Origin: Candidatus Dojkabacteria bacterium
GTDB taxonomy: Bacteria; Patescibacteriota; Dojkabacteria; JAOAGR01
NCBI GenBank assembly: GCA_025999155.1
Contig: AP026679.1
Coordinates: 85,776 to 149,775 of the forward strand
Direction of reading: 5' to 3'
Length of the DNA: 64,000 bases
Part shown: positions 36,699-59,258 of the stretch, one piece after another
Layout of the letters: every line of letters begins with the position of its first letter
Numbering within the stretch: position 1 is the first letter of the stretch
The notes under the pieces: model-generated
Databases searched by the model: none
What the model was told of the DNA's origin: nothing
What the model saw: the letters and a program-made list of their open reading frames with translations, nothing else
Program-made: the position numbers and the translations under genes

Positions 36699-36784
36699 TG
36701 GCGGAGAGAGTGGGATTCGAACCCACGATACTTTCGTATGCCGGTTTTCAAGACCGGTGCCATCAACCACTCGGCCATCTCTCC
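36699..36784 (-). tRNA. tRNA-Ser, anticodon TGA.
   Basis: Reverse complement GGAGAGATGGCCGAGTGGTTGATGGCACCGGTCTTGAAAACCGGCATACGAAAGTATCGTGGGTTCGAATCCCACTCTCTCCGCCA. Long variable arm. Anticodon loop CTTGAAA. Confidence 0.9.
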
Positions 36785-36942: not shown

Positions 36943-39900
36943 ATGGCAAAAATAGATTTTTCAAGAATAAGCAATCTTACCTACAACTGGCGCTTTGTGC
37001 TAAGAAATAGGCGTCTAATTACATTTATACTGATCGGATTGACTCTTATCTTGGGTGGATTAGCAATATTTCTAGCTATTACCATCAATAATCGCAGAGT
37101 GAATCCCGACGATACGGCAGCAGTAGACCCCTGTGGTGGATGTCCCGGTGGTCATTATTGTGATTCGACAACTTGTACCAATCCACCACATGCATTTTGT
37201 TGTCCCAACGATCAAGCATGTGGTTGTCCCATCGCTCAAACCAAGGAAACTCGAATTGTCGATCGTGGCACGCGATGTGGTCCCGCTGCGGGATGTCCGG
37301 AAGGCTTGGGTAAGCAAATGCGTGACTCATGTGAGGTAGGTAAGGATGGACAACTTACTAACTGTACCGATGCTTCGGATGCCGATTGTACTCCAAAGCC
37401 AGGCTGCCCACAGCCAGATGGCACGAACCCTGCCTGTCCTCGATCTGCCATACCGAACTGTGGACAAGGTAATGCCCGCGTAGGAGAAACATGTACGTGC
37501 CAGAGTCAAGGAACAGATCGATTTACTGGCATACAAGTATGTACCGAAACCGGCTGGTCTATTTGTGCTAGAGCCGATGGACAACAGACTCCTAGGGCTG
37601 GCTGTCCGAGTGGTATGCGCCCAGTTAATGGTGTATGTGTGCGTGATTGTGACGGCAACAGTAATATTTGTGCATGTGGTAATAATCTGTGCAGTGGAAC
37701 GGCTGGTCAACGTTTTACTTGTTCAAATGCGAGTGAATGTCAAGTCGTTGACTCAGGGGCGTGGGCTGGGAGTGGAAATTGTAGAGTTGCGGTTGGTCCA
37801 GGTGGATCTGTTGGAGAATGTGCTAGAGCAGAGTTTAGAAGTTGTAACCCTCCTGCAGGGCAAATGTGTCTGTGTTCCGGGCTTGGAGCACCTATTAACG
37901 GCTATAGGTATGGGAACACCACAACCGAACCAGTAGGACGATGCGGAAGCTCTTGTGAAGGTAAGTCTGGGGGAATATATGTCGCTGAGGTTTGCGGTAA
38001 TCCTTATAGATGTCCCGATACTCCTACTTTCAGGCCTCCACCGTGCACTCCGTCTTCGTATTGTGACCCAGTGAGAAATCAAAGAGTGGATACGGTATGC
38101 CATCAAGACGGTTCGAAAAGCGTTATATATACGCCTGAGGAGTGTGGTCCTTGCCCTGTTACACGAGCTTGCCAAGGATGCGATGCGGTCGAATTCAACT
38201 GCCACGGTCAGGTGATCAGAAGAATACCCAACTCGAGCGAATGTCCTTGTACTACCACGACACGAGAGGAAGATGACGCTTGTTCATTTATGACAGTGAC
38301 TGTTGGAGGGCAGTCCATCACAGTAAATAGTGTACTTAGTCCAAACGTACTCAGCGTACAATTACAGCCCGGTCAAGAAATTACATTTAATTCCGGTTCA
38401 GCTGGGCCTAACGCAAATTTTAGCCACTATTGGATGCGGCCGTACGGGCCTGAGGATGGTTGTGCTTATTATATTTTTAACCCTGACACAGAATGGGCAG
38501 GTAGTCCACAAAGGACTTTTAGGCTTCCTGGGAATCTACAGCAATTAGAAAGAAATGACGCTTGGGGGAGAGCTAATTGTAGAGGCAAAACATTTGATTA
38601 TACGAAAGGTGTGATATTTGGAGTAAACTACCTTAGAGACGGAAGACGGTGGGAAGGTAATTGGTGTAGAAATATAGGACCTAACCCTAGTGATAGTAGT
38701 TACTTTAACGCATCCACCGGTAGTCTAAATCGACCATGTCCACGACCGAATCCATGCGTGGTTAGGACACTACCACCACTTGGTGCATGCTCCTCGATGA
38801 CAGTTTCTATCGGCGATCAAACCATTACTGTCAATAATATCAATAGTCCAAACGTCTTAAACGTACAACTGCAACCCGGTCAACAGATTACATTTAATTC
38901 TAGCTCAACAGGACCTGGAGCCTACTTTAGTCATTATTGGATGAGACCATACAGAGCTGATCCTAACGATCCAATTAACCGCCAAGGAACGCGCGAGCAC
39001 ATTTGTGCATATTATATTTTTAACTTCAACCAAGATTTGGGGGGATCTCCTCAAAGGACTTTTACAATACCAAATAATCTTAATGCATTAGAAAGAAATG
39101 ATCTTGCAGGATCTAATGGATCAATTACTGTCAATGGTCAGACTTTTAGCTGTAGAGGTTATGCTCCAGATTATACTCAGGGCGTAATATTTGGAGTCAA
39201 CTATATCCAAAATCCGACCCAGTGGGGAGGGGAGTGGTGCAGTAACCAGGGTCCTAATCCTGGTGATAGTGGCTTCTTTAATGGCTCGATCAATCTAAAT
39301 CGACCGTGTCCTACGCCGAATGTATGTGTTGTGAGGACCCAGTATACTCCACCACCGCCAACAACACCACCCCCACCAGCACCACAATGTACGAGTATAA
39401 CAATACAAAATCAGACACGTAATACATCTTGTAATGCATCTAACCCGAATGCATGTAACGTGATGCAAGGAGATCAGCTGAATGTCAGTGTTACTGGTTC
39501 CGGCACGATTACGCGTTATGGATTAACAACCCAGGTGATACGAGGTCAGAATATTACGACCAACAACCCGACGACTCAAGAATCAAGCCAGTTTAATTCG
39601 ATTACTGTGCCAACAGGAAACGATATTACAGGGTTTGCCATAAGGGGTAGTGTGGAGAATGTTTCTGGATCTCAAAGCAGTGATAACTGCTTCGTTAGAT
39701 TCACATTTACACAGAACCCCGAAATCCAGAAAACCATTAATCGTGCAGGGTCCAACCCTGCGATCCCAGAATCAATGAACCCTGTCGTTGTATCGGGAGG
39801 TAACGTAGTTGAGTACGATATAACTGTGCGTAATAACGGGAATTCAGTGCTTCAAAACGTATTAGTATATGATCGAGTTATTAATCTAAACAATGGAAAC

Positions 39901-41007
39901 GTCGACTTGTCCGGCACACCGATAGGAGCTATAGTTAGAGCGACAAATTTGACCCGAACTACTGGGTCGTCATCCACCCCAAATCCGGTCGCTCCAGCAA
40001 TGGGATACACATCGAATGCGGTACCATTCACGGGAACTACTGTATCTCCAAATAACTCCGCACTACCGAATGATAATTTTTCTGTAAGCCAAAACGTGAG
40101 ACTAGTGAGATGGAGTACCATAACATCGTTCGTGCCGGGAGAGGTATATACAGGTAAAGTAAGGGTAGAGATTCAATCATTCTCTGGTAATCCAGGATTA
40201 CGTAATCAAGTATGTTTAGTCATCGACTCAAATAATAATGGTCAATTTGATAATGTTGAAATGATTAGGTGTAGTGAGGTAGACGTCTTTACCGCACAAC
40301 CTCAATTTACAATAGAGAAAACTGTCAATAACAATACTGCAAACCCTGGTGATACAATTACGTACACGATTACCCTGAGAAATACTTCTAATAATCCACT
40401 TAACTTAAATAACGTCACCATCACTGATGCTTTTGACACGAATTATTTTAATAGGGTAAATATCACACCAGGAAATGGAGGGGAGATACAAAACTCCGAC
40501 CGAGTAGTTTGGACAGGATCAGACCTAGTGACGGCCAACGGAAATAATGCCAACCTAGCTCCAAATGCTACTCTCTCCGTCACTATGCAAGTGAGATTTA
40601 ATCCTGACTTCTTTAATAACGACACAACAATGTGTCAGACAATCATCAATAACGTAGTCACAGCGAGGTCCACATCGCCCGAATTTGATGCAACTTCCAC
40701 AAACGTCACCGTAAATCTGATCAATCCAAATTGTGGTGCAATACCCACGCAGTCGCCGACACAACCTCGTCAAGGACCCACTTCAAATACTTTGCCGAAA
40801 ACCAGTTTAGATATTCCAGTTTTGCTGCCTGTTATCAGTGTCATAGCGATCGTAGTAGGTGTTACAGGCCTAATAGTTCACAAAAGACTGCACTTAAGAT
40901 TATCTAGGGATGGTTCTAGCGCATCTTTGTCTCAGGAACCCAGAAATATTAAAGAGCTCCGTAAAAAGTTTAGAGTTAGAAAACGAAGAGTGTTAAAAAG
41001 TGAATAA
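36943..41007 (+). CDS. Giant (1354 aa) cysteine-rich cell-surface protein. Domain order: N-terminal signal-anchor, about 400 aa Cys/Gly-rich module, two tandem copies of a novel ~170-aa domain, Pro/Thr linker, DUF11-like beta-sandwich repeats, C-terminal LPKTS motif, TM, basic tail (sortase-type sorting signal).
   Basis: TM LITFILIGLTLILGGLAIFLAITI. More than 60 Cys in residues 60-450. Repeats CSFMTVTVGGQSITVNS... / CSSMTVSIGDQTITVNN.... PPPPTTPPPPAP. TITYTITLRNTSNNPLNLNNVTITDAF. C-terminal LPKTSLDIPVLLPVISVIAIVVGVTGLIVHKRLHLRL. GC visibly higher than flanking genes. Confidence 0.7.
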   Translation: MAKIDFSRISNLTYNWRFVLRNRRLITFILIGLTLILGGLAIFLAITINNRRVNPDDTAAVDPCGGCPGGHYCDSTTCTNPPHAFCCPNDQACGCPIAQTKETRIVDRGTRCGPAAGCPEGLGKQMRDSCEVGKDGQLTNCTDASDADCTPKPGCPQPDGTNPACPRSAIPNCGQGNARVGETCTCQSQGTDRFTGIQVCTETGWSICARADGQQTPRAGCPSGMRPVNGVCVRDCDGNSNICACGNNLCSGTAGQRFTCSNASECQVVDSGAWAGSGNCRVAVGPGGSVGECARAEFRSCNPPAGQMCLCSGLGAPINGYRYGNTTTEPVGRCGSSCEGKSGGIYVAEVCGNPYRCPDTPTFRPPPCTPSSYCDPVRNQRVDTVCHQDGSKSVIYTPEECGPCPVTRACQGCDAVEFNCHGQVIRRIPNSSECPCTTTTREEDDACSFMTVTVGGQSITVNSVLSPNVLSVQLQPGQEITFNSGSAGPNANFSHYWMRPYGPEDGCAYYIFNPDTEWAGSPQRTFRLPGNLQQLERNDAWGRANCRGKTFDYTKGVIFGVNYLRDGRRWEGNWCRNIGPNPSDSSYFNASTGSLNRPCPRPNPCVVRTLPPLGACSSMTVSIGDQTITVNNINSPNVLNVQLQPGQQITFNSSSTGPGAYFSHYWMRPYRADPNDPINRQGTREHICAYYIFNFNQDLGGSPQRTFTIPNNLNALERNDLAGSNGSITVNGQTFSCRGYAPDYTQGVIFGVNYIQNPTQWGGEWCSNQGPNPGDSGFFNGSINLNRPCPTPNVCVVRTQYTPPPPTTPPPPAPQCTSITIQNQTRNTSCNASNPNACNVMQGDQLNVSVTGSGTITRYGLTTQVIRGQNITTNNPTTQESSQFNSITVPTGNDITGFAIRGSVENVSGSQSSDNCFVRFTFTQNPEIQKTINRAGSNPAIPESMNPVVVSGGNVVEYDITVRNNGNSVLQNVLVYDRVINLNNGNVDLSGTPIGAIVRATNLTRTTGSSSTPNPVAPAMGYTSNAVPFTGTTVSPNNSALPNDNFSVSQNVRLVRWSTITSFVPGEVYTGKVRVEIQSFSGNPGLRNQVCLVIDSNNNGQFDNVEMIRCSEVDVFTAQPQFTIEKTVNNNTANPGDTITYTITLRNTSNNPLNLNNVTITDAFDTNYFNRVNITPGNGGEIQNSDRVVWTGSDLVTANGNNANLAPNATLSVTMQVRFNPDFFNNDTTMCQTIINNVVTARSTSPEFDATSTNVTVNLINPNCGAIPTQSPTQPRQGPTSNTLPKTSLDIPVLLPVISVIAIVVGVTGLIVHKRLHLRLSRDGSSASLSQEPRNIKELRKKFRVRKRRVLKSE
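38279..39343 (+). repeat. Intragenic tandem duplication, two copies of about 500 nt, encoding a novel ~170-aa domain within the giant surface protein.
   Basis: ccaaacgtactcagcgtacaattacagcccggtcaagaaattacatttaattc versus ccaaacgtcttaaacgtacaactgcaacccggtcaacagattacatttaattc. Conserved protein blocks QLQPGQxITFNS, FSHYWMRPY, CAYYIFN, GSPQRTF, LERND, GVIFGVNY, NRPCPxPNxCVVRT in both copies. Confidence 0.8.
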
Positions 41008-48896: not shown

Positions 48897-50012
48897 TTAT
48901 TCAAATCCAACCCCTAAGTCTCCACCTAAACGCCAATAGAAAAACGCATAGATACCGAATTGTTTTGATAAGTTTTTACGGTTCACAAGGCGATTTTTAT
49001 CTAGAAAGTAAATCTTATTATTACCATTTTGCAAAAACATTTCATCTCTTTCCTGATCTACTACAGCTTTAGTCAGATCGAACTTATCATTTAGTTCTTG
49101 ATAAGTGTACGCTCTTATAACCTCATACTTATCGTCAAACTCATAAGCATATAAAGGCAATCCCACAATCAACTTGGCTCTTTGCTCATATGAAATAGTT
49201 TCAAGAGTATCCTTTAGCCAGTACATCGGTGTATTTCCAATACCACCATTATACAAAGCGTAATCATAGAAAAGTAAGACTAGACGATCTACAACTTTAA
49301 CTAAATGAATAAGATTTTCTATATTATCTAAAGTCAAATTATGGATATTACTATTTAGAGATCGTGCAAATACAGATACAAAGAGATTGATATTATATTT
49401 TTCTAATTGTTCATTAAGCTGACTAATTACTTCTAAAAATAATGCAATGTCTTCTTTAAAAACTCTTTCAAAATTTAGATTAAGAGTAGAGAAGAACTGG
49501 TACTGATTTTTGATCTTGATAGCAAAATCAAATAAATACTTAAAATCTTTCTTCAGAATTGCCCTAGTATGAAGAGGATTGGTAGATAATATATTCACGC
49601 CAAATTTTAAATTATTTTGATTTAAAGTATTTAGGGCATAATCAAAATTACTTGATAAAATAAGATCACCACTGGATCCTACCGAGGCTCCTGCGAAATG
49701 TACTTCTTCGATTAGGTGTCTATAATTACTAGCACTCGACAAACCTCGCATAAAATCAAAATGCGGGATCCATGCGTAATACACAAAAGGATAATTAAAC
49801 TCTTTCACATCAGTCCAAACTAGTTCTATAGTAGGATACACAGAATAACTTTGGACATTACGCTGATAAAACACAGACTTTGAATAAGGGAAAAAATTTA
49901 CAGTTAAGATTAATCCCGTAGCTACCAACAATCCAGCTAACACATACAATAAATAAAACAGCCTATCAAAATTAAACTTAGAATCCATAATTCTAGACTT
50001 GATAAAAGACAT
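48897..50012 (-). CDS. Hypothetical membrane-anchored extracytoplasmic protein, possibly a TIM-barrel glycoside-hydrolase-like fold. Assignment weak.
   Basis: N-terminal TM LFYLLYVLAGLLVATGLILTV. Alternating beta/alpha pattern. YDYALYNGGIGNTPMYW and GLPLYAYEF resemble GH18-like strands, but no DxxDxDxE. Confidence 0.35.
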   Translation of the reverse strand: MSFIKSRIMDSKFNFDRLFYLLYVLAGLLVATGLILTVNFFPYSKSVFYQRNVQSYSVYPTIELVWTDVKEFNYPFVYYAWIPHFDFMRGLSSASNYRHLIEEVHFAGASVGSSGDLILSSNFDYALNTLNQNNLKFGVNILSTNPLHTRAILKKDFKYLFDFAIKIKNQYQFFSTLNLNFERVFKEDIALFLEVISQLNEQLEKYNINLFVSVFARSLNSNIHNLTLDNIENLIHLVKVVDRLVLLFYDYALYNGGIGNTPMYWLKDTLETISYEQRAKLIVGLPLYAYEFDDKYEVIRAYTYQELNDKFDLTKAVVDQERDEMFLQNGNNKIYFLDKNRLVNRKNLSKQFGIYAFFYWRLGGDLGVGFE

Positions 50013-50284
50013 CTGAATAAAGCTTAATAAAAAAATTACGATGAAGTCAAAAATAGCATAACAAAAAGCGAAATATACACCAATATCGTAAAACTTCTTG
50101 GTTTAATTTAATAGTATTCAGTCCTATAAAAATCTTTAGATACAATATAAATATGTTAGACTCCTTACCTTATTTAGAGGACTTTTGTAATAAAAACTAT
50201 ATTATCAATGCTGAAATCTTATAAGAAAAAAGAACCACCTATGGTGCGTTTGTTTGACGAAAGCCGAACCTATTTTGAAATAAA

Positions 50285-50435
50285 TTGATTCGCTCCGCCC
50301 CGCCGCCGCTCGCTGTCCAGTAAAAAAATTTTCTTCGGATTTTTTGATTTGGTGCGCGGTTTTTTATTCTAAAAAGGTAAAAAAACTTTTTTGCGGGAAT
50401 CTGCTCTGAACGAGCAGGGTGGCGGGGCTTCAAAT
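50285..50435 (+). ncRNA. Candidate structured non-coding element (strand uncertain). A GC-rich island in AT-rich DNA with a long-range 11-bp helix and an internal hairpin. Identity unknown.
   Basis: GCCCCGCCGCC (50297-50307) pairs with GGTGGCGGGGC (50418-50428). Local hairpin CTGCTC-tgaac-GAGCAG (50401-50417). No ORF longer than 64 aa and no RBS. Confidence 0.3.
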
Positions 50436-50593
50436 TGGACGATGGGTGAGGTTAGTCATGCTATGCTTTTAATTTATCACAAATACGGTAAGAAATAGAT
50501 TTGTTATTGCAGCAATTTTACCATTTGTTATAATATGACCTATACCTATGGTCGGGGTATGGATAAGTAAATAATTATTAAATTTTCAAAAAT

Positions 50594-50866
50594 ATGACTA
50601 CTCAAAAAGAAAAAACACTCATCAATTTCAAAAAAGCCCAAAGCTTAATATCCAAGATTATTCAAATGGTGGAGGCTGACGAATACTGCATTGATATTAT
50701 GCAGCAAAACGCGGCCGTGATTGGCCTTTTGAAATCCGCTCATCAAATGCTGATGGAAAATCATCTTAACACCTGCTTCAAAAAAGCAATGGAAACTAAA
50801 AACGAGAAAAGAAAAAGAGAAATGACCAAAGAAATTTTAAAGGTTACAAAATTATTTAATAAATAA
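50594..50866 (+). CDS. csoR: CsoR/RcnR-family copper-sensing transcriptional repressor.
   Basis: EADEYCIDIMQQNAAVIGLLKSAHQMLMENHLNTC matches CsoR DRYCIDVLTQISAV...HLSHC. Cu ligands C-H-C present. Confidence 0.8.
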   Translation: MTTQKEKTLINFKKAQSLISKIIQMVEADEYCIDIMQQNAAVIGLLKSAHQMLMENHLNTCFKKAMETKNEKRKREMTKEILKVTKLFNK

Positions 50867-50879
50867 TTCAAAAAAATAT

Positions 50880-52295
50880 ATGACTAATTCAAAAAAATAT
50901 ATGACTAAAAACACAAAAGAACATATTTATTATGTCAAAGGAATGCATTGCGCTTCCTGTGAAATTTTAATTGAAAAAAAATTATTGGAAATTGAAGGAG
51001 TAAAATCAGTCGATGCATCAGCAAATCAAGGAGAAATAAAAATAATTTATGAAAATAAACTACCAAAGGTAAAAGAATTGAATCATCTTTTTAAAAAAGA
51101 AGGTTATGTATTTTCGAATGAGCCATTTAAAGAAGAAAAAAATAGTTCTTTCTTAATTACTTTAGGCAGCGCTTTTTTGATAATTGTCTTCTTCTTTCTT
51201 TTTAAAAATAGTTTTGTTGCTGGATTAGTTAATGTTTCAGCTAATTCATCTCTACCTACTTTCTTTATTTTAGGATTAATTGCCGGTCTTTCTTCTTGCG
51301 CCGCTTTAGTTGGTGGATTAGTTTTATCTTTGGCAAAACAATGGCAGGAAGTTTTTGCAAAAAGTAATTCAACTTTTGAAAAACTTCAGCCCCATTTAAT
51401 GTTTAATTTTGGACGAATTTTATCGTATGGATTTTTTGGCGGTTTAATTGGTGCTTTAGGCTCAAAACTTCAAATTTCTCCAGTATTTACATCCCTTTTG
51501 GTTTTTCTAGTGTCGTTTTTAATGATCGGGCTCGGACTTCAAATGTTGGGAGTAAAAACATTTAGAAAATTTCAAATTACGATGCCAAAATTTGTTACTC
51601 GTTTTATCGCTAATGAAACAAAATTTCAAGGAAAATATATACCAGCTCTTTTAGGCGCTTTTACTTTCTTTTTGCCTTGTGGATTTACCCTTACCGCTCA
51701 AAGCTTGGCTTTAATCTCCGGTAGTTTTTTGCAAGGATTTTTGATTATGTTCTTTTTTGCTTTGGGAACTACTCCTGGACTTTTAGCTATTGGTTTTTCT
51801 TCAGTGAAATTTTTAGAAAAACCTCGTTTGTCTGATAATTTTTTGAAAGCGGCAGGTATTTTGGTTTTGTTTTTCGCCTTATATAACATCAACGCTCAAT
51901 TAAATCTTTTAAGTCTACCAAGTTTAAGCGATGTTAGATTAAGTTTTAACCACCAGGCATTGCCAAAAGAAAATTCTTCAAACGAAGAGGGATTGCCGCC
52001 AATAGTTAATGGTAAACAAGTAATAAAAATGAATGCCTCAAGTTATGAATATGAACCAAATTATTTTAAAGTGAAGGTTGGCATTCCGGTAAGATGGGAA
52101 ATTAAGGATATTGGTACTTCAGGTTGCACTAACGCTATTGTCTCTAAGACTCTTTTCCCCGACGAAATTTCTTTAACTCCGGGACAAATTAGCGTTAAGG
52201 AATTCACACCTACAAAACCAGGTAAATACAAATTTTCTTGTTGGATGGGAATGGTTTCTGGAACTATTGAAGTAGTTGATACAAAAACACAATAG
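50880..52295 (+). CDS. Heavy-metal-associated (HMA) domain fused to a DsbD/CcdA-like 6-8 TM core and a C-terminal cupredoxin-like domain. Putative copper-handling membrane protein.
   Basis: HMA YYVKGMHCASCEILIEKKL. TM core with LSSCAALVGG and FLPCGF Cys. C-terminal beta-sandwich YEYEPNYFKVKVGIPVRWEIKD...KYKFSCWMGMVSGTIEVV (cupredoxin-like Cys/His/Met spacing). Confidence 0.6.
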   Translation: MTNSKKYMTKNTKEHIYYVKGMHCASCEILIEKKLLEIEGVKSVDASANQGEIKIIYENKLPKVKELNHLFKKEGYVFSNEPFKEEKNSSFLITLGSAFLIIVFFFLFKNSFVAGLVNVSANSSLPTFFILGLIAGLSSCAALVGGLVLSLAKQWQEVFAKSNSTFEKLQPHLMFNFGRILSYGFFGGLIGALGSKLQISPVFTSLLVFLVSFLMIGLGLQMLGVKTFRKFQITMPKFVTRFIANETKFQGKYIPALLGAFTFFLPCGFTLTAQSLALISGSFLQGFLIMFFFALGTTPGLLAIGFSSVKFLEKPRLSDNFLKAAGILVLFFALYNINAQLNLLSLPSLSDVRLSFNHQALPKENSSNEEGLPPIVNGKQVIKMNASSYEYEPNYFKVKVGIPVRWEIKDIGTSGCTNAIVSKTLFPDEISLTPGQISVKEFTPTKPGKYKFSCWMGMVSGTIEVVDTKTQ

Positions 52296-52452
52296 AAAAC
52301 AACTCTTATACTAAAACTATAAACACAACGAAAAATGACATAAGGAAAATAAAAACGCCTCTTTTAATATTAATAGCTGAGGTCATAGAAAAGAAAAGAG
52401 GAGTTTGCTAATTAAAAAAAGAAAATAAATAGAAAATTTATTTTAAACAACT

Positions 52453-54708
52453 ATGGAAAGAGCAATCCTAAAGATTTCAGGCATGCATTGCGTTTCTTGC
52501 GCAGTTAATATTGAAAACGCTATAAGGAAAGAGACAGGAGTTAAATCAGCTAATGTTAATTTCGCTTTAGAAAAACTTTATTTGGAGTTTGATGATGCTG
52601 AAATTAACATTGCCAAGATTAAAAATATCGTTGAAAAATTAGGATACAAGGCAGCGGAAGAAATTATTGATCAAGAAATGCACGACTACCATAAAGAAGA
52701 GTGGGGACAAGAAATTCAGGAATTAAAAAAACGGTTCGTTTCTGCACTGATTTTTAGTTTACCAATTATTTATATGGTAATGGGCGAAATGCTTGTTAGC
52801 TTGCCAATGCCGACAATTTTTGAAAGTTACGGGACTATTATCCAGTTTGCTTTAACCACGGCTGTTATTGTTGCCTGTTTTAATATCTGGACTTCCGGTT
52901 TCAAAAATTTATTGCGGTTGGCCCCGAATATGGATTCACTTATTTTTATTGGCACGGCCGTCGCCTATTTTTACAGCTTAGTCATTTCCATTTTGACATT
53001 TTGGGGCGTAAAAATTGAAGCTCATCTCTACTACGAAAGTGCAGCTTCGATTTTAGTTTTTGTTTCTTTAGGGAAATATCTTGAAGCGATAACCAAAGGA
53101 AAAACCAGTGAAGCGATTAAAAAATTGATCGGGCTTCAGCCAAAAGAAGCAACAATAATAAAAAATAATGAAGAAGTAAAAATCCCCATTTCTGAAGTGA
53201 AAATCGGAGATATTATTTTGGTTAAACCCGGAGAAAAAATACCAGTTGACGGAATTGTTGTTGACGGCCACTCCAGCGTTGATGAAAAAGCAATTACCGG
53301 CGAAAGTATCCCAGTAGAAAAGAAAAAAGGCGATGAAGTAATCGGCGCGACTATCAATACAACCGGCGTTTTGAAATTTAAAGCAACTCGGGTAGGCAAA
53401 GATACGATGTTGGCCCAAATTATAAAAATAGTTGAAGAAGCGATGGGCTCCAAAGCGCCGATCCAGCTTTTGGCGGACAAAGTTTCTTTTTATTTTGTTC
53501 CGTCTGTAATTAGTATTGCTGTTTTTGCCTTTGCTGTTTGGCTTTTACTGGGACAGCCATTAGCTTTCGCTCTAACGGTTTTTGTGGACGTTTTAATTAT
53601 TGCTTGTCCCTGCGCTTTAGGTTTGGCAACGCCGACCGCGGTGATGATGGGAACAGGACTGGCGGCAAAAAACGGAATTTTAATTAAAAACGGCAAAGCT
53701 CTGGAAATCGCCTGCAATTTGGATATAGTTATTTTTGACAAAACTGGAACCTTAACTAAGGGTGAACCAAGTGTTACCGACGTGATAAAAATTAAAAATG
53801 ATATTAGCGAAAATTTAATTTTGCAAATCGCGGCATCGGTGGAAAAACATTCCGAACACCCTTTAGCTCAAGCGATTGTCAATAAAGCAAAAGAAAAAAA
53901 GATTAATCTTTCCGAAGTTAAAAATTTTCAAGCCATACCCGGCCATGGAGTTTCGGCTGAGTTAGAAAATAAAAAAATACTTTTTGGTACAAGAAAATTG
54001 ATGATTGATAATCAGATTGACCCAAATTTAGTAGAGGAAAAAATGATTGCCTTAGAAAATCAGGGCAAAACAGTGATGATTTTAGCAGAAGATAAAAATA
54101 TAATCGGCATTATTGCGGTCGCGGATACTCTCAAAGATTATTCAAAAGAAGCAGTTAAAATGCTCCATACAATGGGCAAGAAAGTAGCGATAATTACCGG
54201 GGATAATAAAAGAGTTGGACAGGCCATCGCCAAACAGGTCGGCATAGACAAGGTTTTGGCTGAGGTGTTGCCGCAAGAAAAATCGGCCGAGATCCAAAAA
54301 TTGCAAAGTGAAGGATTTGTTGTGGCAATGGTTGGCGACGGAATAAATGACGCTCCGGCTTTGGCTCAAGCAGATTTAGGAATCGCTTTGGGCTCGGGCA
54401 CGGATGTGGCGATGGAAACTGGAGAAATAGTTTTGATTAAAGACGATTTGCGATATGTTGTCGCGGTGATTGACTTGAGCAAATACACATTAAACAAAAT
54501 CAAACAAAATCTCTTTTGGGCTTTCTTTTACAACATTGTTGGTATTCCTCTGGCTGCCGGAATTTTATATCCTTTCACCGGTTGGCTTTTAAATCCAGCT
54601 ATTGCCGCTGCTGCGATGGCTTTTTCGTCGGTTAGTGTTATTTCAAACGCTCTTTTAATGAAAAGATATGAACCACAAATTACTAAAATCATAAAGGGAG
54701 TTCCTTGA
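52453..54708 (+). CDS. copA: Copper-translocating P1B-type ATPase.
   Basis: [22 protein letters not shown] motif [28 protein letters not shown]. 751 aa. Confidence 0.92.
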
Positions 54709-54854
54709 TTCGTGGGCGCAACTTTATTATGGCAAAAATTCTTTTTTGGGCAGAACAAATACAAAAATCGCAAGGGATTTCAGGTCAGTGTTTCCGTTCT
54801 CTGCCGCCCTTCGCACAGCTGAATCAATCAGCAAAACTCCTGTAAGTTTAATAT

Positions 54855-54942
54855 TGGTGACGGGAATGGGACTCGAACCCATAAGTCTGTAATAGACACT
54901 AGTACCTGAAACTAGCGCGTCTACCAGTTCCGCCATCCCGCC
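54855..54942 (-). tRNA. tRNA-Leu, anticodon CAG.
   Basis: Reverse complement GGCGGGATGGCGGAACTGGTAGACGCGCTAGTTTCAGGTACTAGTGTCTATTACAGACTTATGGGTTCGAGTCCCATTCCCGTCACCA. Long variable arm. Loop TTCAGGT. Confidence 0.85.
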
Positions 54943-55035
54943 AATAGAAAACGATAGCTAAAATATTATATCAGAAAACAACACAGGAAGTATTTTTAAT
55001 CTTACCTGCTATCAAAATTGAGAAAATACCAAGAA

Positions 55036-55111
55036 TGGTGATGCGTACTGGACTCGAACCAGTGACAGGCTGCTTAAGAGGCAGCTGCTCTACCAACTGA
55101 GCTAACGCACC
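55036..55111 (-). tRNA. tRNA-Lys, anticodon CTT.
   Basis: Reverse complement GGTGCGTTAGCTCAGTTGGTAGAGCAGCTGCCTCTTAAGCAGCCTGTCACTGGTTCGAGTCCAGTACGCATCACCA. Loop CTCTTAA. Confidence 0.85.
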
Positions 55112-55181
55112 ACTTTATGTCTTTCGATTTTAGCAAAGATAAATGAATTAGACTAGTAAAAAACTATTAATCGCCCTTAGT

Positions 55182-58428: not shown

Positions 58429-58854
58429 ATGAGTAATTACGACGGGCATCGACAACACTACCGCTTTCATGTATGGTTGATGCAAGCACAATATGATTTA
58501 CAGGCTGCGGAAATTAGTCGTAAAAACGGATTTTATGAGTGGTCTTGTTTTCAAGCTGGACAGGCAGCAGAGAAAGCATTAAAAGCAGTTATTGTATATC
58601 ACGGGAAATCGGCTCCTAAAGTCCACAAACTAGGTGTACTTATCGGTATGATCAAGAATATAGATGCTAGATTTCGTGGTATTCGTCTAGACATTACTGA
58701 GCTGCAGTCTTATACTTTTAGTGCAAGGTACCCATTTTTAATACCTGGCAATTTAGAAACACCACATGAATATATAGATGCAGAGGACGCAAAAATATGT
58801 ATAAATCAAGCGAAAATCATATTAAACTTAATCAAAGAGATATTGAACGTTTAG
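58429..58854 (+). CDS. HEPN-domain protein (NTase-associated HEPN, PF05168-like).
   Basis: WLMQAQYDLQAAEISRKNGFYEWSCFQAGQAAEKALKAVIVYHGKSAPKVHKLGVLIGMI is the canonical HEPN helix pair with the H-x-L motif. Confidence 0.75.
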   Translation: MSNYDGHRQHYRFHVWLMQAQYDLQAAEISRKNGFYEWSCFQAGQAAEKALKAVIVYHGKSAPKVHKLGVLIGMIKNIDARFRGIRLDITELQSYTFSARYPFLIPGNLETPHEYIDAEDAKICINQAKIILNLIKEILNV

Positions 58855-59258
58855 TCGAAGCTGTCGATATAATCAAAGCCTGGGCTAGGGACAATCTTTG
58901 TGAAATAGTGCTTTTTGGCAGTTATGCCCGTGGAGAACAAAAAAAATACTCATCCATTGATATACTCGTCATTCTCACGGAATCACAAGAAGATTTTATC
59001 CAACGTAAAACTGCTCTGGAGAAAATTTTAAATTCTTCAGGAGCCATTCCATTAATCGACACACTTGTTTACACAGAGGATGAAATCAAGGATTTAATAA
59101 AAAAGAAAGAGAGCTTTATTGTATCTGTATTGGAAGAAGGATGTGTGATATGTAATGGCAAGGATAATATAGAGATTCAAAAGATTAACACATTGCCACA
59201 CATTATCCATTCAAAATATTTTGACCTCCTACCGAGCTTAAATGAAGTTGACGTGTAG
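58797..59258 (+). CDS. Minimal nucleotidyltransferase (MNT, Pol-beta superfamily) partner of the HEPN protein. 58-nt overlap with the upstream gene as annotated.
   Basis: IVLFGSYARGEQKKYSSIDILVIL: GS-x9-13-DxD NTase signature. Confidence 0.75.
   Translation: MYKSSENHIKLNQRDIERLVEAVDIIKAWARDNLCEIVLFGSYARGEQKKYSSIDILVILTESQEDFIQRKTALEKILNSSGAIPLIDTLVYTEDEIKDLIKKKESFIVSVLEEGCVICNGKDNIEIQKINTLPHIIHSKYFDLLPSLNEVDV

Follow-up and report, generated by a model that had tools for sequence, protein, structure and literature searches.

Copper-responsive csoR-copZ-copA operons of Firmicutes and Actinobacteria combine a CsoR repressor bearing a Cu(I) triad, a GC-tract pseudo-palindromic operator that overlaps the promoter and a P1B-1-type CopA. 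All three are shared by the operon described here, from a genome of Candidatus Dojkabacteria, but the free CopZ gene is replaced by a gene for a 471-aa membrane protein, which we call X. Membrane proteins with HMA and DsbD_2 domains, including the COG2836 type (HMA-DsbD_2-DUF2318), have already been inferred to be CsoR-regulated in a meta-regulon of gut Firmicutes (PMC4938975); X has a CupA-like domain instead of, or alongside, DUF2318. Our literature search for HMA-DsbD_2 or HMA + DsbD + cupredoxin membrane proteins returned only this 2016 meta-regulon inference and no experimental study. The C-terminal domain of X aligns in sequence with S. pneumoniae CupA and the N-terminal metal-binding domain of S. 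pneumoniae CopA (PDB 4F2E, 4F2F). CupA is described as acting at the cytoplasmic face, whereas the corresponding domain of X forms the C-terminus of a seven-TM protein and is predicted to face outward. The CupA system is regulated by CopY rather than CsoR, and the CopA encoded here differs from that of S. pneumoniae in having an N-terminal HMA and no cupredoxin domain.

The membrane core of X is closest to CcdA, DsbD and ScsB, with which it shares DsbD_TM and DsbD_2 matches and single cysteines in TM1 and TM4 at helix breaks. DsbA- or thioredoxin-like genes also neighbour X in longer operons, and a link to copper stress is common to X and the copper-induced Scs system, of which ScsC itself is a Cu(I) binder (PMC3322552, PMC10907172, PMC8900818). 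X differs in lacking both a fused thioredoxin-fold domain, so that the acceptor would be its cupredoxin domain, and a PCxxP-type motif in TM1, and in adding an N-terminal TM helix and a cytoplasmic HMA domain. On the side of mobile elements, CIMEs (cis-mobilizable elements; defined in PMC5704250) keep attL- and attR-type ends and have lost the recombinase, as in the island described below, and the tycheposons of Prochlorococcus are likewise small integrative elements that carry cargo and sit at tRNA genes of a streamlined genome (bioRxiv 10.1101/2020.12.28.424599). Serine-recombinase IMEs are described as inserting mostly within genes, whereas the large-serine-recombinase (LSR) family concerned here has as its target the final bases of a variety of tRNA genes; in contrast to CIMEs, IMEs and tycheposons, the arms here include a long structured GC-rich module.

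The operon lies in the window, the whole 64-kb stretch of DNA that we analysed, as three plus-strand open reading frames: csoR (50594..50866), the X gene (50880..52295) and copA (52453..54708). The sequence-only reading had described this unit as a horizontally acquired island inserted between minus-strand genes and bounded by two tRNAs, with a GC-rich non-coding element on its left. We confirmed the three genes, the GC-rich element to the left and the tRNA-Leu(CAG) and tRNA-Lys(CTT) genes to the right (54855-54942 and 55036-55111, both on the minus strand; ARAGORN and Rfam). Both tRNA genes are on the right side, however, and the sole tRNA boundary is the 3' end of tRNA-Leu, the integration target. 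The strand arrangement holds in part: of the genes to the left, the adjacent GH18-like gene (48897-50012) runs on the minus strand, but L27, L21 and pyruvate kinase beyond it are on the plus strand. Between the GH18-like gene and csoR is an intergenic region of 581 bp (50013-50593) that contains the GC-rich stretch at about 50240-50470. A separate GC-rich stretch at 37-41 kb of the window is one long ORF and not rRNA.

Comparison of the tRNA-Leu/tRNA-Lys locus with two relatives on short contigs, located through the lineage-specific GH18-like gene, supported the proposed acquisition: the operon is absent from both. The ends of the insert sharpen this reading, as they match the two arms of tRNA-targeting LSR elements from metagenomes. 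The closer relative (L088; 82.5% nucleotide identity to the window over 2.5 kb) has the order pyruvate kinase, L21, L27 and GH18-like gene, followed by ~200 bp and an identical tRNA-Leu (100% identity over 80 nt). In the more distant one (L089), whose GH18-like protein is 47% identical in amino acids, the order without the operon is AI-2E, DAGK, tRNA-Lys, tRNA-Leu, GH18-like gene and L27. A UvrC-based search for syntenic relatives among 185k species genomes gave a best homologue of 57% identity and no shared neighbours.

Bulk GC, which the sequence-only reading had proposed as a check, does not differ between the operon and the genome (0.351 versus 0.353). Codon usage is atypical for copA, the most so among the 41 ORFs of the window, but for copA alone, that of X being genome-typical. 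In L002, whose three operon proteins are ~80% identical to those of the window, GC is 0.30 in the operon versus 0.23 in its flanks, and in 5-6 of 9 csoR-X-copA loci copA is followed by a tRNA gene on the opposite strand; these observations, like the codon usage of copA, favour a mobile cargo. The genome-typical bulk GC of the operon and codon usage of X, together with the limitation of the comparison to two relatives on short contigs, would fit an operon that is ancestral at the tRNA-Leu locus, with deletion or excision in the relatives and no gain in the lineage of the window. We consider such a history quite unlikely, given that the operon is missing in both a close and a distant relative and that the breakpoints fall exactly on att-type arms and a tRNA 3' end. 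Even an exact loss would have to proceed through site-specific recombination of the element, which makes the unit a mobile insertion under both histories.

The insert spans 50242-54854 (4613 bp) and starts and stops at TGGTG, the last bases of tRNA-Leu. At the left, homology to the empty site of L088 stops at the core (50242..50246, plus strand), in an attL-like order of flank, core and head; the window reads ...CCACCTA-TGGTG-CGTTTG, and the empty site reads ...CCTGCCTA-TGGTG-ACGGG, the reverse complement of the tRNA-Leu end. The core recurs at the right junction (54855-54859) as TGGTG on the plus strand, which corresponds to CACCA-3', the last five bases of tRNA-Leu(CAG), in the order P arm, TGGTG and tRNA. 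Adjoining the left core is the head, or P' arm (50247..50303, plus strand; consensus TGGTGCAATTATATGACAAAGTCCGAACCTATTTTGAAC), which is conserved in a family of LSR-associated elements. An HMM of the head made from metagenome copies matches 50239-50303 (E=6.7e-14), the sole significant copy in the window, and no further head copies were found elsewhere in its 64 kb. The P arm (54744..54854, plus strand) directly abuts the tRNA-Leu 3' end and is the remnant of a recombinase-proximal LSR-element arm from which the LSR body is missing: it aligns with 12 LSR-linked copies, the corresponding HMM matches 54744-54848 (E=5.3e-19), and residues 485-515 of one LSR (L153) match 54788-54880 by tblastn (58% identity, E=1.2e-5; a 31-aa remnant). 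Beyond this remnant, tblastn of three LSRs against the 64-kb window gave no recombinase match.

The same junction of P arm, TGGTG and tRNA occurs in LSR loci at six other tRNA genes, namely Leu(TAA), Tyr, Val (two genes), Leu(GAG) and Ala. These LSRs have a Resolvase + Recombinase + Zn_ribbon_recom architecture, and the related elements, in other uncultured genomes, are small, target tRNAs and carry restriction-modification or protease cargo. In intact relatives the joined arms are present a second time, internally and inverted; genes for conjugation or replication were not seen. The possibility that the head is a displaced 3' half of tRNA-Leu was rejected, as its sequence is unchanged whichever tRNA is targeted. 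A search for a long direct repeat between the island ends found none beyond the 5-bp core, and the only tRNA-related repeat is that of tRNA-Leu versus tRNA-Lys. The unit is also not a classical tRNA-linked island with a tyrosine integrase and a long repeat, because it contains no integrase ORF and its shared core is 5 bp, where such islands have a repeat of at least ~15 bp.

Taken with the empty sites, the junctions indicate that 50242-54854 is probably a decayed LSR cassette that carries a self-regulated copper-detoxification operon. Site-specific recombination at the outermost 3' bases (CACCA) of tRNA-Leu(CAG) would have brought the 4.6-kb cassette into the chromosome, with ends provided by the head and its GC-rich module on one side and by the P arm of small tRNA-targeting LSR elements on the other. 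The recombinase gene and an XRE-like gene would since have been lost, such that the cassette could at most be moved by a recombinase supplied in trans. Because no recombinase gene is left, either within the island or anywhere else in the 64 kb of the window, we class the island as CIME-like rather than autonomous, and mobility at present would be putative at most. This absence, the shortness of the 5-bp core and the genome-like bulk GC of the operon count against the cassette reading.

The GC-rich module that follows the head (50304..50470, plus strand) is built from a GC stem that closes it, one long hairpin inside and a small hairpin of CUGCUC with GAGCAG. Its plus strand folds at -77.8 kcal/mol (z -2.86), and an alignment of eight sequences gave a consensus of 53 pairs, 94% paired, with compensatory change at 18 pairs compared to 5.7+-1.8 in shuffles (0/500) and 1-5 in slid controls. 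Rfam searches of 50000-50600, at gathering scores and at E<=10, found no family for the element and only a chance sRNA match, and ARAGORN found no tmRNA, by which RNase P, SRP, 6S RNA and tmRNA were rejected as identities. Conserved structure with compensatory changes, a plus strand that folds better and alone allows several G-U pairs, and a related GC-rich copy upstream of another copper operon (L084) would all suit a small RNA gene in its own right or a leader that regulates the copper operon in cis. As an alternative to a part in recombination, however, either role is unlikely: about 50 other copies adjoin LSR genes or other cargo without copper genes, the element is missing at 7 of 9 copper loci, and the recombination junction is made up of its first bases. 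A part in recombination need not exclude a role as RNA, as the element itself could produce the module as a transcript.

The first gene of the cargo encodes a 90-aa Cu(I)-sensing repressor of the CsoR/RcnR family, which matches PF02583 (Trns_repr_metal) with 59.6 bits (cutoff 22.8; E=4.1e-16). The NCBIfam equivalog models for RicR, FrmR and RcnR all scored far under their cutoffs, so no finer assignment is possible. Cys32 (preceded by Tyr31), His57 and Cys61, at spacings of 25 and 4 residues, match the C-H-C Cu(I) triad of the family (x-C-H-C fingerprint). A putative sigma-70-type promoter upstream of csoR (50507..50534, plus strand; TTGCAG, 16 nt, TATAAT) was recognised from sequence; a consensus scan for promoters and terminators, which gave 10 matches versus 16.8 expected, did not list it. 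Over the 100 nt 5' of csoR, identity to the corresponding region of two other loci (L084/L085) is 87%. Eight nucleotides downstream of the -10 hexamer is a CsoR operator-like pseudo-palindrome, ATACCTATGGTCGGGGTAT (ATACC-N7-GGGGTAT; 50542..50560, plus strand), which occurs once in the 64-kb window, with 0.02 expected by chance, and precedes csoR at each of the nine csoR-X-copA loci that we compared. With little Cu(I) present, CsoR would occupy this box just 3' of the -10 hexamer, and Cu(I)-bound CsoR would leave it, allowing csoR, X and copA to be transcribed.

The last gene, copA, encodes a 751-aa Cu(I)-exporting ATPase of the P1B-1 type, which carries a single HMA domain at its N-terminus. 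It scores 624.3 bits against TIGR01511 (cutoff 397) and 671 bits against TIGR01525, matches Pfam HMA, E1-E2_ATPase and Hydrolase above gathering scores and shows the CPC, YN, MxxSS, DKTGT and GDGINDAP motifs, while falling under the cutoff of the E. coli CopA equivalog NF007952 (669 versus 1316). CopA would export Cu(I) from the cell.

Protein X matches HMA, DsbD_2, DsbD_TM and Cupredoxin_1 above Pfam gathering scores. Residues 17-76 form an HMA domain with the motif MHCASC, predicted to be cytoplasmic, followed by an extra TM helix and a six-TM DsbD_2/CcdA-like core at residues 125-335 (DsbD_2, 115.6 bits, cutoff 24.9; DsbD_TM, 32.8 bits, cutoff 27.1), giving seven TM helices in all. Cys140 in TM1 and Cys267 in TM4 are invariant in 56 homologues, and the AF2 model (pLDDT 75.8) places each of them where its helix is broken. 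The canonical CcdA/DsbD motif is a proline-flanked cysteine (PCxxP-like) in both helices; X does not have it in both, as its TM1 (GLSSCAALVGG) contains no proline and its TM4 (FLPCGFT) has proline on one side only. A search with hhalign for an internal 3+3 repeat returned nothing, and comparison of the core with solved CcdA/DsbD family members recovered no sequence or fold match. Domain modelling bore out the expectation of a cupredoxin-like beta-sandwich at the C-terminus (residues 377-466), with CupA as the best fold match. C416, C454, M456 and M458 align with CupA C74, C111, M113 and M115 and are invariant in homologues, as is the Trp in the motif Cys454-Trp-Met456-Gly-Met458 (CWMGM); based on a positive-inside count, this domain is predicted to be extracytoplasmic. 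The sequence-only reading had called the fusion unusual, but the architecture is common, shared by thousands of homologues and by 936 clusters at 50% identity. These are always encoded between csoR and copA, and longer operons add thiol-oxidoreductase genes (HMA-DsbA, LMWPc) and not further transport genes.

The invariant TM1 and TM4 cysteines and the thiol-oxidoreductase genes of longer operons make it plausible that, as first suggested, X couples Cu(I) binding to transmembrane reductant transfer. Our best, tentative guess is that X is a two-cysteine relay of the CcdA/DsbD type that keeps an outward-facing CupA-like site reduced. Reducing equivalents would pass from the cytoplasm to X's own outward-facing domain, whose Cys416/Cys454 pair would thereby stay reduced and let the domain take up Cu(I) exported by CopA or act as a reductant of Cu(II); the HMA domain on the cytoplasmic side might be a Cu(I)-responsive or electron-entry module.

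Homologues of X are named 'sulfite exporter TauE/SafE family protein' in databases, and tauE of S. aureus is regulated by CsoR-family members such as CstR, by which analogy X would export sulfite or organosulfonates under a CstR-like persulfide sensor. We disfavour this as highly improbable: X has no TauE match in Pfam (E<=0.01) or NCBIfam and matches DsbD_2 and DsbD_TM instead, the regulator bears the Cu(I) Cys-His-Cys triad, X has two copper-type domains, and copA is always next to it.

A less remote alternative, although still somewhat unlikely, is that metal rather than electrons moves through X, which would hand Cu(I) by thiolate relay from the HMA CxxC to Cys140/Cys267 and on to the external Cys/Met site. 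The model for such a carrier is the MerP-MerT-MerA relay, which, like X, has cysteine pairs on both membrane sides and within, and an HMA fold at one end; X differs in its reversed topology (HMA inside), its membrane fold, its metal and the lack of a reductase partner. Each of the three invariant sites of X has a ligand set typical of Cu(I), and HMA domains fused on the cytoplasmic side normally pass metal to transporters such as CopA. The HMA domain weakly matches models of MerP and MerTP, the DsbD_2 fold is also used by metal and anion transporters, and several polar TM residues (N176, R179, Q221, T272 and Q274) are invariant in the 56 homologues. However, a passive cation carrier expressed under high copper would be prone to let copper leak into the cell, the membrane potential being inside-negative, the operon already has an ATP-driven exporter, and the thiol-oxidoreductase genes of longer operons are not transport genes.

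Candidate-phyla-radiation bacteria have tiny genomes and, to our knowledge, few recognised mobile elements, and this locus is a base-pair-resolved example of a tiny genome gaining an adaptive operon. What delivered the operon is probably a small serine-recombinase element of a kind that targets the CCA end of tRNA genes and can decay to a recombinase-less cassette. Its cargo highlights the large X family, hundreds of 50%-identity clusters mislabelled 'sulfite exporter'. It is possible, if more speculative than the relay itself, that X is a self-contained transmembrane copper-redox device, in which a CcdA-type dithiol relay is hard-wired to an outward CupA-type site with the HMA domain as gate. 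If so, X would supply, in one polypeptide, the 'unknown reductant' that resets CupA-type chaperones, would add a widespread third component to the CsoR-CopA systems of Patescibacteria, Actinobacteria and Firmicutes, and would act as a cytoplasm-powered extracytoplasmic Cu(I) trap or Cu(II) reductase. The anatomy of X suggests how an outward-facing copper-binding cysteine site stays reduced, a point of interest for CupA-type chaperones.

The window belongs to a metagenome-assembled genome of Candidatus Dojkabacteria. The three plus-strand open reading frames (ORFs), two tRNA genes and 581-bp intergenic region with a GC-rich stretch described in the sequence-only reading were all confirmed in position. 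Using Pfam with curated thresholds, the first ORF (csoR, 50594-50866) matched Trns_repr_metal, the second (50880-52295, encoding a 471-aa protein identical to KatS3mg084_0126 and here termed X) matched HMA, DsbD_2/DsbD_TM and Cupredoxin_1, and the third (copA, 52453-54708) matched HMA, E1-E2_ATPase and Hydrolase. The unit is not bounded by two tRNAs, as had been thought: tRNA-Leu(CAG) (54855-54942, minus strand) and tRNA-Lys(CTT) both lie to its right.

Relatives were identified with the lineage-specific GH18-like neighbor gene as a probe, yielding two short contigs that both lack the operon at the tRNA-Leu locus, as expected of the proposed island. One of them (L088; 82.5% nucleotide identity to the window over 2.5 kb) carries pyruvate kinase, L21, L27, the GH18-like gene, about 200 bp and a tRNA-Leu(CAG) identical to that of the window across the 80 nt present. 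The order in the other (L089) is AI-2E, DAGK, tRNA-Lys(CTT), tRNA-Leu(CAG), GH18-like gene and L27. Homology to L088 ends at window position 50246 and restarts at 54855, with TGGTG, the complement of the tRNA-Leu CACCA-3' end, at both break points. By this comparison, a 4,613-bp island (50242-54854) has been inserted at the 3' end of tRNA-Leu(CAG). The probe gene (48897-50012, minus strand) has no Pfam match itself, although its homologues match Glyco_hydro_18, and just five relatives were found in 5.8 billion proteins, for which reason it is best described as a lineage-specific, divergent GH18-like gene.

The left GC-rich element opens with a conserved head (from 50247). A 20-nt head motif retrieved 67 metagenome stretches, about 50 of which are true family members, and the head HMM matches the window copy (E = 6.7e-14). 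In at least 17 head-bearing stretches, a large serine recombinase (LSR) of about 505 aa (Resolvase + Recombinase + Zn_ribbon_recom) adjoins the head, and the 111-nt copA/tRNA-Leu interval (54744-54854) is homologous to the recombinase-proximal P arm of these elements based on HMM (E = 5.3e-19) and alignment. Intact elements have the junction ...AAAGTTTnATnT-TGGTG-tRNA at tRNA-Leu(TAA), Tyr, Val (two genes), Leu(GAG) and Ala, which matches the right junction of the window base for base. Among their cargo are type III restriction-modification genes, an Mrr-like nuclease accompanied by a TPR protein, and a trypsin-like protease. The window layout is flank-TGGTG-head ... cargo ... P-TGGTG-tRNA; a joined P-TGGTG-head site would recombine with the tRNA end, with the two junctions of the window as the expected products. 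When LSRs were searched against the window for a recombinase gene using tblastn, only a 31-aa P-arm remnant was recovered. Because the recombinase is missing and the expected recombination ends are kept, we classify the island as a CIME-like derivative, CIMEs (cis-mobilizable elements) being defined as recombinase-less derivatives (PMC5704250). Separately, the tRNA-Lys/tRNA-Leu spacer of the more distant relative L089 (L089:1295-1860) spans 566 bp with a 94-aa ORF, compared to 93 bp in the window, and holds the string TGGTGCGCG, reminiscent of the head start.

Past the head lies a GC-rich module (50304-50470) that is variable in sequence and conserved in structure. Across eight diverse copies, its 53 consensus pairs were 94% paired, with compensatory change at 18 pairs; shuffles gave 5.7 ± 1.8 such pairs (0/500) and slid controls 1-5. 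The module folds better on the plus strand (z = -2.86 versus -1.97), matched no family in an Rfam search and may act as RNA or as DNA hairpins. Besides their outer junctions, intact LSR elements (L153:1075-5017 and L097:621-4743; also L154, L138 and L095) contain an internal inverted P-TGGTG-head copy, which could represent a two-att circle, accretion or an inversion switch. Their heads (146-153 nt, 99% identical) lie either side of an XRE-like gene plus cargo and their P copies (115-129 nt, 95-100% identical) either side of the recombinase body, with one P copy encoding the final ~42 aa of the LSR.

The composition expected of an acquired island was found only in part. Operon GC (0.351) is close to that of the genome (0.353), a weak signal, but codon use in copA departs furthest from the norm among the 41 long ORFs of the window (GC3 0.352 versus 0.268 ± 0.031). 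With copA atypical but X typical to low (GC3 0.219), the cassette is compositionally mosaic. Elsewhere, one locus (L002) encodes three operon proteins about 80% identical to those of the window, with an operon GC of 0.30 versus 0.23 in the flanks, and another (L084) has inverted heads either side of the copper genes. An opposite-strand tRNA gene lies past copA in 5-6 of nine loci. In other genomes copA overlaps the 3' end of such a tRNA-Pro by 19 nt (L160:10784-10854) and ends at most 364 nt from the 3' ends of a second tRNA-Pro (L159:14992-15070), a tRNA-Ala (L158:11186-11259) and a tRNA-Gln (L002:14612-14683). Neither head nor P arm was detectable at these copA/tRNA sites. Because the adjacency recurs without either arm, these loci suggest that copper cassettes have been inserted at tRNA targets repeatedly, either by different routes or in older events.

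In the regulator CsoR, Cys32, His57 and Cys61 are spaced as in the CsoR Cu(I) triad, the Cys-His-Cys fingerprint of the family, and Tyr31 precedes Cys32. A putative promoter (TTGCAG-16-TATAAT, 50507-50534, plus strand) was read from the sequence, and 8 nt downstream of it lies an operator-like box, ATACCTATGGTCGGGGTAT (50542-50560, plus strand), which occurs once in 64 kb versus 0.02 expected. The box is conserved, with a copy ahead of csoR in each of the nine csoR-X-copA loci retrieved, and the 100-nt stretch preceding csoR shares 87% identity with its counterpart at a locus whose X is just 73% identical. CopA passes Cu-ATPase subfamily models (TIGR01511, 624 bits versus a cutoff of 397) and carries CPC, YN and MxxSS motifs; the csoR-to-X gap is 13 nt. 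Together, the triad, promoter and box, CopA motifs and gap lead to the conventional and well-supported reading of a Cu(I) efflux operon, which copper would derepress. A 21-nt tandem duplication across the csoR/X boundary (50861-50908) gives X two in-frame ATGs (M1 and M8); as alignment to homologues begins only near residue 10, the true start may be 50901.

The fusion in X had been considered unusual, but its three-domain architecture is common. A word-indexed search returned >3,900 matches, the best 120 of which are all three-domain, belong to Patescibacteria and Actinobacteria, and in most cases bear the annotation 'sulfite exporter TauE/SafE family'. When 1.84 billion cluster representatives were searched exhaustively, 936 relatives were recovered at E ≤ 1e-30, and nearly all of the best 150 span residues 10-466, with identity as low as 35%. 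Invariant in 56 aligned homologues are the HMA CxxC cysteines (C24 and C27), C140 in the first core helix, C267 in the fourth (LPCG), and C416 and C454-W-M456-G-M458. Comparing sequences is what establishes the domain folds and their ligands. The AlphaFold model (pLDDT 75.8) has seven transmembrane (TM) helices with breaks at both membrane cysteines. Across the family, loop 223-253 has a K+R count of 7.1 and loop 309-321 one of 2.9, with counts close to zero in the alternate loops; the topology predicted from these counts has a cytoplasmic HMA domain and an outward-facing cupredoxin domain. The core has a strong DsbD_2 and a weak DsbD_TM match in Pfam; searches by sequence and fold detected no solved relatives, no internal repeat was recognizable and the TM1 cysteine lacks flanking prolines. 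Many homologues (about 570 aa) have an extra Cys-rich C-terminal tail past the cupredoxin domain (...PSGAxGCGCGxGxxxCG) that is absent from X in the window.

In 9/9 loci csoR is directly upstream and copA downstream of X, and longer operons (L157:4994-7730, L159:8743-12712, L083:9789-12570, L084:10070-10830 and L086:7405-10127) variously hold HMA-Thioredoxin_4/DSBA fusions, LMWPc (ArsC-like), FtrD-like/DUF2318, a PCYCGC protein or CopZ in the interval from X to copA. Also present in this set, in the csoR/X-to-copA interval, are a cysteine desulfurase and, at one locus, genes for Fur, peroxiredoxin and desulfoferrodoxin. We favor a dithiol relay, through which an outward-facing CupA-like Cys pair would stay reduced, because the core, a member of the DsbD/CcdA superfamily, has kept precisely the two membrane cysteines and because thiol-oxidoreductase genes occur alongside X. 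The main rival reading, favored by the fused cytoplasmic HMA domain and invariant polar TM residues, would make X a Mer-type Cu(I) thiolate relay, but a passive copper carrier switched on by high copper would be counter-productive. The dithiol relay is further favored because CupA chemistry consumes its Cys pair, for which the reductant is not known (PMC5646241), and the DsbD-like ScsB already supplies the Cu-binding ScsC during copper stress (PMC3322552, PMC10907172, PMC8900818). A literature search on X-type fusions found nothing beyond a 2016 metagenomic inference assigning HMA-DsbD_2-DUF2318 proteins (COG2836) of gut Firmicutes to the CsoR regulon (PMC4938975).

Two further features of the window were noted. 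The GC-rich region 36943-41007 (plus strand; GC 0.44-0.49 in a 0.35 genome) was rejected as rRNA since it is a single 1354-aa ORF, with weak CLIPPER-type Pfam matches, starting 159 bp from tRNA-Ser(TGA) (36699-36784, minus strand) on the 5' side of the tRNA. A HEPN ORF (58429-58854) overlaps a nucleotidyltransferase ORF (58797-59258); the pair resembles a HEPN-MNT toxin-antitoxin system, and a DsbA/Thioredoxin_4 gene comes after it.

The operon type, CsoR, CopA, CupA folds, DsbD-like relays, LSR integration and CIMEs are already known. New here are X as a large family with a CupA-like domain predicted to lie outside, an LSR lineage that has a structured arm and integrates at the last bases of many different tRNA genes, and a recombinase-less copper cassette, resolved against an empty site, in a candidate-phyla-radiation genome.
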